From Sinorhizobium meliloti (GTDB taxonomy: Bacteria > Pseudomonadota > Alphaproteobacteria > Rhizobiales > Rhizobiaceae), in NCBI RefSeq assembly GCF_017876815.1, contig NZ_JAGIOS010000002.1:270001-302000 (forward strand): a stretch of DNA of 32,000 nt. Reading direction: 5' to 3'. A program made the position numbers and the translations under genes. This document shows positions 27,712 through 27,785 of the stretch, one piece after another (the first letter of the stretch is position 1; each line of letters opens with the position of its first letter). The notes beneath the pieces are model-generated. The model did not search any database and was not told the DNA's origin. It saw nothing but the letters and a program-made list of their open reading frames with translations.

Positions 27712-27785
27712 TCTCTCTCTCTCTCTCTCTCTCTCTCTCTCTCTCTCTCTCTCTCTCTCTCTCTCTCTCTCTCTCTCTCTCTCTC
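27712..27785. repeat. Perfect dinucleotide microsatellite (TC)37 / (GA)37
   Basis: Read directly from the sequence: 74 uninterrupted alternating T/C bases from 27712 to 27785. It is intergenic, with 55 nt between it and the orf85 stop and 481 nt between it and the exoH ATG. Confidence 0.99.

Follow-up and report, generated by a model that had tools for sequence, protein, structure and literature searches.

The perfect dinucleotide repeat (TC)37 between exoI-orf85 and exoH of Sinorhizobium meliloti is a hypermutable microsatellite: strains with identical flanking sequence carry different numbers of TC units, and about half of the S. meliloti pSymB records have no tract at this site. Weighing the length variation, the structural alleles of the locus and the position of the tract relative to the control sites of exoH, we consider the tract to be most likely a derived and non-essential microsatellite that was born in a copy of a RIME-like palindromic repeat and is likely neutral.

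In the window, the 32-kb stretch of DNA that was analysed, the tract spans 74 bp (27712-27785) and reads (TC)37 on the plus strand and (GA)37 on the other, with 37 being the count as assembled. TRF (period 2, 37.0 copies, 100% matches, zero indels, score 148) and direct reading of the sequence agree on these coordinates, which are those given in the first-pass annotation. The same annotation described the repeat as the only low-complexity tract in the window, and indeed TRF returned it as the sole microsatellite-type array, the remaining 15 rows being units of 7-18 bp in two to three copies. A (TC)6 probe matched the window 32 times, always within the tract, and gave 0 matches in 100 dinucleotide-preserving shuffles; the tract is an uninterrupted run of a 1-6-bp unit far above chance, as is characteristic of microsatellites. 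By its sequence it is also a homopurine/homopyrimidine run with mirror symmetry, the arrangement typical of H-DNA-forming sequences. Rfam models at the gathering threshold revealed no RNA family over the tract. The only match above this threshold in the window was the Rhizobiales sRNA Atu_L1 (RF02504; 21321-21476, minus strand, within the exo cluster; 70.5 bits, E = 2.4e-14), which is unrelated to the tract. Two mechanical open reading frames on the minus strand (27669-27869 and 27677-27841) cross the tract as (ER)n, and each unit change would shift their frame; they were rejected as genes because they lie wholly within the repeat element described below and are missing from other alleles.

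Perfect dinucleotide tracts of this length had been called rare in bacterial genomes. A scan with a (TC)15 probe across one genome per species (185,579 species) supported their rarity per genome, yet it returned at least 120 (TC)≥15 stretches among the species representatives, and the locus is not unique in this respect: most of the matches listed come from MAGs, and among those listed 12 have 37 units or more. Cultured isolates were few among the matches listed (e.g. Bradyrhizobium australiense and Dysgonomonas) and carried 15-28 units. The genome of B. australiense WSM 1791 holds a perfect (TC)18 at 5085-5120 with unrelated flanks, and long TC runs are therefore sporadic in other rhizobial genomes. 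A metagenome scan with (TC)7 followed by AGSCCAAG returned five unrelated eukaryote-like contigs. Our literature search found no earlier description of the tract or of SSR/VNTR typing in S. meliloti.

Protein domains and homologous records, which annotate exoI, a hypothetical protein and exoH in this order, place exoI and orf85 upstream of the tract and exoH, exoK (GH16) and exoL downstream (Table 1), in agreement with the gene context proposed earlier. The stop codon of orf85 lies 55 nt upstream of the tract, and the previously given distance of 481 nt from the tract to the exoH ATG (28267) is correct. A search of orf85 against Pfam found no family; the frame is kept in S. medicae. exoH is the first of the eight genes of operon OP_SMb20954 (exoHKLAMONP). 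In Sinorhizobium sp. K101 (pK101c) and in CP141213, the right half of the repeat element alone precedes the conserved exoH upstream region; the coding region upstream is a different one, without exoI-orf85, and the gene order next to exoH differs.

Table 1 Features of the exoI-exoH region in window coordinates. The four structural alleles occupy the same site.
Feature	Position	Strand	Remarks
exoI	frame ends 27379	+	SNase domain; upstream of the tract
orf85	27399-27656	+	small hydrophobic ORF of 85 aa downstream of exoI; hypothetical protein in homologous records
Decayed RIME-like palindromic intergenic repeat	27678-27877 (approximate, ~200 bp)	+	hosts the tract; from allele and copy alignment
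Left-module hairpin GGAGGAC...TCTCCTCC	27681-27704	+	-12.7 kcal/mol, z = -1.5, no U-run
(TC)37 tract	27712-27785	+	74 bp
Hairpin CCCTGTG-ACGAG-CACAGGG	27811-27829	+	surviving right arm of the element's long inverted repeat
PhaR motifs	27899-27919, 28007-28027, 28108-28128, 28141-28161	+	block 27899-28161 near-invariant in S. meliloti
MucR footprint AATTTCTGCAACATGCCGCGAAACCGGGATTTTTCAGGAAAGCG	28023-28066	+	verbatim in the window; 125 nt upstream of the TSS, 237 nt downstream of the tract
exoH TSS, homologous position	28191	+	70-nt leader to GTG 28261; mapped in tract-less strain 1021
exoH	28261-29379	+	succinoglycan succinyltransferase, Acyl_transf_3; start GTG 28261 or ATG 28267
Allele 1	27657-27832		TC tract (window type)
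Allele 2	27657-27832		intact element (S. kummerowiae)
Allele 3	27657-27832		Rm1021 type: extra sequence on the left, right-arm hairpin deleted
Allele 4	27657-27832		B399 type: two deletions, GC hairpin alone left

A 921-bp intergenic query matched 70 Sinorhizobium pSymB-type records over spans of unequal length, and 25 of these were retrieved. At the same site and between the same flanks, 19 S. meliloti pSymB records carry a TC run of 18 to 37 units: 18 in SM11, 18.5 in RCAM1750, 19 in ml59, 21 each in USDA1021, ml46 and ml56, 22 in ml28, 24 in BIM B-442D, 25.5 in Rm41, 26 in USDA1157, 27.5 in RCAM1115, 28 each in R11, R14 and R28, 29 in Ak57, 32 in B401, 33 in ml21, 36 in KH46 and 37, followed by an interruption, in ml66. 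With its 37 units, the window stands at the top of the range formed by itself and these 19 records, and the allele lengths show no clustering. Five strains with identical flanks (630 bp on the left and 700 bp on the right, 1,330 bp in all) have 18, 19, 21, 32 and 33 units, and a second group with identical flanks has 21, 24 and 26. Because unit counts differ where the flanks are identical, the tract changes far faster than point substitutions accumulate. Copy number thus varies by whole units among close relatives while the flanks stay constant, as in microsatellites; whole-unit length change is the signature of slipped-strand mispairing, and the tract is a hypermutable microsatellite. These data substantiate the earlier view of the tract as slippage-prone and answer the question, raised along with it, whether an alignment of the orthologous exoI-exoH regions would reveal differences in length: the tract varies in length and is present in part of the strains.

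The near-clonal record pairs ml21/CP140959 and ml66/CP140955 have equal spans, and the instability of the tract therefore stops short of making every isolate differ. In the assemblies of R14, ml56, R11 and RCAM1115, either single bases are gained or lost at the edge of the tract (CACTCTC, CATCTTCTC) or the flanks contain frameshift-like indels; such indels are typical of uncorrected long-read assemblies, and half- and one-unit differences in these strains should not be over-read. The one-unit difference between Ak57 (29) and R11, R14 and R28 (28) was set aside as a case of laboratory-scale instability, as the relationship of these strains is not established and the assemblies are indel-noisy.

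The tract-less records of S. meliloti include 21 of the Rm1021 type (83% coverage class), among them Rm1021, 2011, GR4, BL225C and RU11/001, and at the Rm1021 site a different sequence block stands in place of the tract. The tract is missing as well from strain B399, S. kummerowiae, S. medicae and Sinorhizobium sp. K101. Succinoglycan genetics, the exoH promoter and the binding of MucR were all defined in tract-less Rm1021. Both Rm1021 and Rm41, with its 25.5 units, are effective symbionts that make succinoglycan.

A feature of the locus that was not visible to the first-pass annotation is its repeat element: as the alignments show, the tract is nested in a RIME-like palindromic repeat, whose core it replaces. 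Between the window's flanks, S. kummerowiae has CA-TCTCT-GTGCTTGTCATAGAGATGAGAGTAGCGCCGCGTCTGCGGCGCGGGAAGAGT-TCTCTC-AG where the window has CA(TC)37AG. A 161-nt segment of the S. kummerowiae allele occurs at 1,701 places in 180 plasmid/chromid records, with 20-40 places per pSymB, and these records belong only to Sinorhizobium, Rhizobium, Agrobacterium, Ensifer and Neorhizobium, all Rhizobiaceae; within the 32-kb window no second copy of the element was found. Three copies at unrelated loci (in KH46, B401 and Rm41) align over about 200 nt and have the module in the same position, with CATCTCT on the left and TTCTTTCAG or TTCGTTCAG on the right, and in intact copies this double-hairpin module lies between CATCTCT and TCTCTCAG. 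The intact element folds as a long inverted repeat around a GC hairpin (-68.6 kcal/mol, z = -5.6). In the window, the left arm of this inverted repeat and the GC hairpin GCGCCGC-GTCT-GCGGCGC are gone, with the TC tract in their place. Many intergenic copies in rhizobia and agrobacteria, large palindromes and mosaic copies are the traits of RIME-type repeats; the element resembles these by description rather than by sequence comparison. Rfam at E ≤ 1 gave only sub-threshold chance matches for four element copies and no model for the element.

The hairpin immediately upstream of the tract, which had been taken to end the exoI-orf85 unit, is instead a module of this dispersed repeat. It is kept in element copies at unrelated loci, and its stem is followed by GCCCUUCAUCUC and not by the U-run that follows the GC-rich stem of an intrinsic terminator. 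In line with its modest folding score (Table 1), the hairpin was not called as a terminator: a promoter and terminator scan of 26800-28600 returned nothing adjoining the tract and no terminator-like site at 27657-27790.

Alignment of the alleles divides the intergenic region into two parts. The part that begins near 27833 and runs up to the exoH start is near-invariant within S. meliloti. The part between the orf85 stop and roughly 27832 is mosaic, and four structural alleles of it occur in S. meliloti and S. kummerowiae (Table 1). This latter site is a hotspot of palindrome-associated rearrangement. In S. medicae, about 120 nt of unrelated sequence stand where the element would be. The tract allele is derived, since the module belongs to the element consensus and both element and tract are missing from the outgroup S. 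medicae.

These alleles suggest a route by which the tract may have arisen. The alignment shows the ancestral state to be the intact element, CA-TCTCT-(~52-bp double-hairpin module)-TCTCTC-AG, which persists at the locus in S. kummerowiae and, with other rearrangements, in Rm1021. A deletion between the TCTCT direct repeats that border the palindrome's base probably removed the module. Deletion between short direct repeats at a palindrome base is a classic route of palindrome-associated deletion. The remaining TC seed would then have expanded by slipped-strand mispairing, and the tract now drifts by 2 bp at a time within a range of about 18 to 37 units, as the variation among the strains shows. 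Module deletion followed by slippage expansion seems to us the most economical two-step route. The first-pass annotation had listed, as one of three possible roles, a recent strain-specific expansion with no function. The lack of function is the part of this proposal that is best supported; the expansion is neither recent nor strain-specific, given that about half of the sequenced S. meliloti pSymB replicons carry the tract allele and that the flanks around it belong to diverged haplotypes. This allele is best described as a widespread, old and highly polymorphic by-product of repeat-element decay.

Several observations nevertheless run against a neutral reading. The deletion should at first have left approximately three units, yet every allele in the window and the 19 tract-bearing records has at least 18, and lengths from about 3 up to 18 units were not seen. 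Moreover, long tracts are found between flanks of different haplotypes, 8-10 SNPs apart per 630 bp; they have either persisted through divergence within the species or been moved by recombination. Such persistence is not predicted by a simple neutral model with a bias towards contraction and may be a sign of weak selection. Together, the gap in short alleles and the diverged haplotypes suggest that tracts above a threshold tend to expand, or else that length is under weak selection, and they are the sole reason why we leave a small share of probability to a functional reading. A (GA.TC)37 mirror repeat can, in addition, form H-DNA in principle and absorb supercoils at a distance.

The position of the tract was also compared with the known control sites of exoH. 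Coordinates of Rm1021 pSymB were converted to window positions by subtracting 1152971, a conversion confirmed on GTG 28261 and on the verbatim MucR site. The exoH transcription start SMb_TSS2557, mapped in strain 1021 at pSymB 1181162 (Schlueter et al. 2013), corresponds to window position 28191, and the tract extends from -479 to -406 relative to it. Like the start site, the operator maps stem from strain 1021/2011, in which the tract is missing. The earlier statement that MucR binds upstream of exoH is correct: the supplement of Schlueter et al. (2013) lists a footprint from Bertram-Drogatz 1998 at pSymB 1180994-1181037. PhaR (AniA) binds and represses the exoH promoter according to a 2025 study (PMC12542648), Table 3 of which gives four motifs in the promoter region, the most distal of them 113 nt downstream of the tract. 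Upstream of the tract there is only the end of orf85. Because the mapped start site and the MucR and PhaR sites all lie downstream, the length of the tract cannot alter any known operator-promoter spacing, which removes the usual mechanism of promoter contingency repeats. The suggestion of a hypermutable spacer that changes promoter or operator geometry is accordingly not supported by the location of these sites, all of them in the near-invariant block.

Three further observations concern this promoter region. An ExpR box upstream of exoH, which we had considered, was dropped, since a review puts the ExpR sites upstream of exoI and exsH and not of exoH. At window position 28118, in the centre of the third PhaR/AniA motif and 83 nt upstream of the TSS as reported, the window has A where all 24 other retrieved Sinorhizobium sequences, including S. 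medicae, have C (TTTAGGTGCA[C>A]TGCAGCATGA); the difference may be regulatory and specific to this strain, or it may stem from an error in sequencing. The near-palindrome CCCCAAAATATTGCGGGG at 28000-28020 overlaps the second PhaR motif, abuts the MucR footprint and is kept across S. meliloti strains.

Among the alternatives to a neutral by-product of element decay, the one that fares best, unlikely as we hold it to be, is that slippage in the tract tunes exoHK expression, and with it succinylation and cleavage of succinoglycan, to give heterogeneous populations. The tract is hypermutable, shares its intergenic region with the exoH promoter and persists as long alleles on diverged haplotypes, and elsewhere promoter-proximal repeats do act as rheostats, as does the T-tract of H. 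pylori sabA (PMC4081817). Here, however, the TSS is 406-479 nt downstream of the repeat, as are all mapped operators at shorter distances; the repeat changes no known spacing and has only the orf85 coding region on its far side; it is neither in a reading frame nor in or adjacent to a core promoter or operator, where contingency repeats are found. Allele lengths without clustering speak against such tuning as well, and the equal spans of the near-clonal pairs indicate that switching is not rapid at that scale. Half of the strains, including Rm1021 and 2011, do without the tract, and as it also lies upstream of the mapped sites, it is not required for exoH control; the symbiotic competence of Rm1021 without it and of Rm41 with it argues in the same direction.

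Somewhat more improbable is a second proposal, that H-DNA or an impediment to RNA polymerase limits read-through from exoI-orf85 into exoH and thereby replaces the lost GC hairpin. No canonical intrinsic terminator was found on the plus strand between exoI-orf85 and exoH, the tract stands in the place of the element's strongest hairpin, and such tracts are known to have the potential to form triplexes in vitro (review PMC7015867). Against this, tract-less alleles with other hairpin content coexist in the species (Rm1021, B399), and the B399 allele is without both the tract and most of the element. Transcription from exoI towards exoH would make (UC)n RNA from a purine template, and of the two orientations this one obstructs less. 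The barrier or insulator role put forward in the first-pass annotation is hence disfavoured both by geometry and by the tract-less alleles of fully competent strains. We judge it similarly improbable that the tract is actively maintained, with its length or H-DNA state tuning exoHK transcription or read-through from the quorum-sensing-activated exoI-orf85. If true, active maintenance would mean heritable and rapidly reversible heterogeneity in the succinylation and the low-molecular-weight fraction of succinoglycan, and a contingency-type mechanism in a plant symbiont that acts from more than 400 bp upstream.

The origin of the tract could also be read in the opposite direction, with the TC tract as the ancestral state and the module as an insertion in the Rm1021 and S. 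kummerowiae lineages, TCTCT being a target-site duplication. At the locus the module is indeed flanked by TCTCT and TCTCTC. Copies at unrelated loci, however, have the module in the same place, so that these junctions belong to the element consensus and are not duplications of the tract, and the outgroup S. medicae is without element and without tract; this polarity is very improbable. An assembly or sequencing artefact, which the error-prone nature of dinucleotide runs and the indel noise at the tract edge in R14 and ml56 might suggest, is hardly credible given the same tract between the same flanks in 19 independently assembled pSymB records from several laboratories.

Returning to the derived and likely neutral microsatellite that we favour, the tract is a polymorphic bacterial microsatellite/VNTR within a REP/RIME-like element, an ordinary object, though its organism and location are unusual. 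With one PCR amplicon, S. meliloti strains that are otherwise identical over kilobases could be told apart, and the tract would thus be of use for fast strain typing. Along with the four structural alleles, it provides a natural series for the rate and bias of dinucleotide slippage in a GC-rich alpha-proteobacterium, and the locus offers a clean example of the birth of a microsatellite from the decay of a palindromic repeat element. ExoH succinylation controls the production of low-molecular-weight succinoglycan, which is needed for nodule invasion. The importance of the tract would be far greater if its length modulated the exoH operon; geometry and the presence/absence data argue against this, and on present evidence the tract holds no regulatory discovery.

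Contingency loci are the known systems to which a functional tract would be compared. The (TA)n repeat of H. influenzae hif lies between the -10 and -35 boxes, and Neisseria has poly-G/C tracts. Like these, the tract is slippage-prone and near a surface-polysaccharide operon relevant to host interaction. The repeats of contingency loci, however, lie within an ORF, in the core-promoter spacer or beside the -35 box, whereas the tract is more than 400 nt upstream of the TSS, upstream of all operators and missing from half of the species. With the H-DNA-forming (GA.TC)n repeats of plasmids and eukaryotic promoters it shares the form of a perfect homopurine/homopyrimidine mirror repeat, and 74 bp are well above the length needed for an intramolecular triplex in vitro (see also the review named above); here the triplex is a potential structure, predicted from the sequence. 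The host element is akin to RIME and to REP/ERIC/MITE-like repeats in being about 200 bp long, intergenic, multi-copy and mosaic, with palindromic modules. RIME1 and RIME2, reportedly described by Osteras and colleagues in 1995, are said to be Rhizobium-specific intergenic mosaic elements, and the host element, likened to RIME by resemblance only, is similarly confined to Rhizobiaceae in the plasmid collection. The literature searched contained no description of a microsatellite born inside a RIME/REP-like element. The closest counterparts of the tract itself are the microsatellite/VNTR loci of the MLVA type, with which it has in common a perfect, short-unit, non-coding array, whole-unit differences and conserved flanks. 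It differs from them in its length, which is unusual for a dinucleotide repeat of a free-living alpha-proteobacterium, and in its presence/absence polymorphism, which results from its place inside a repeat element that rearranges.
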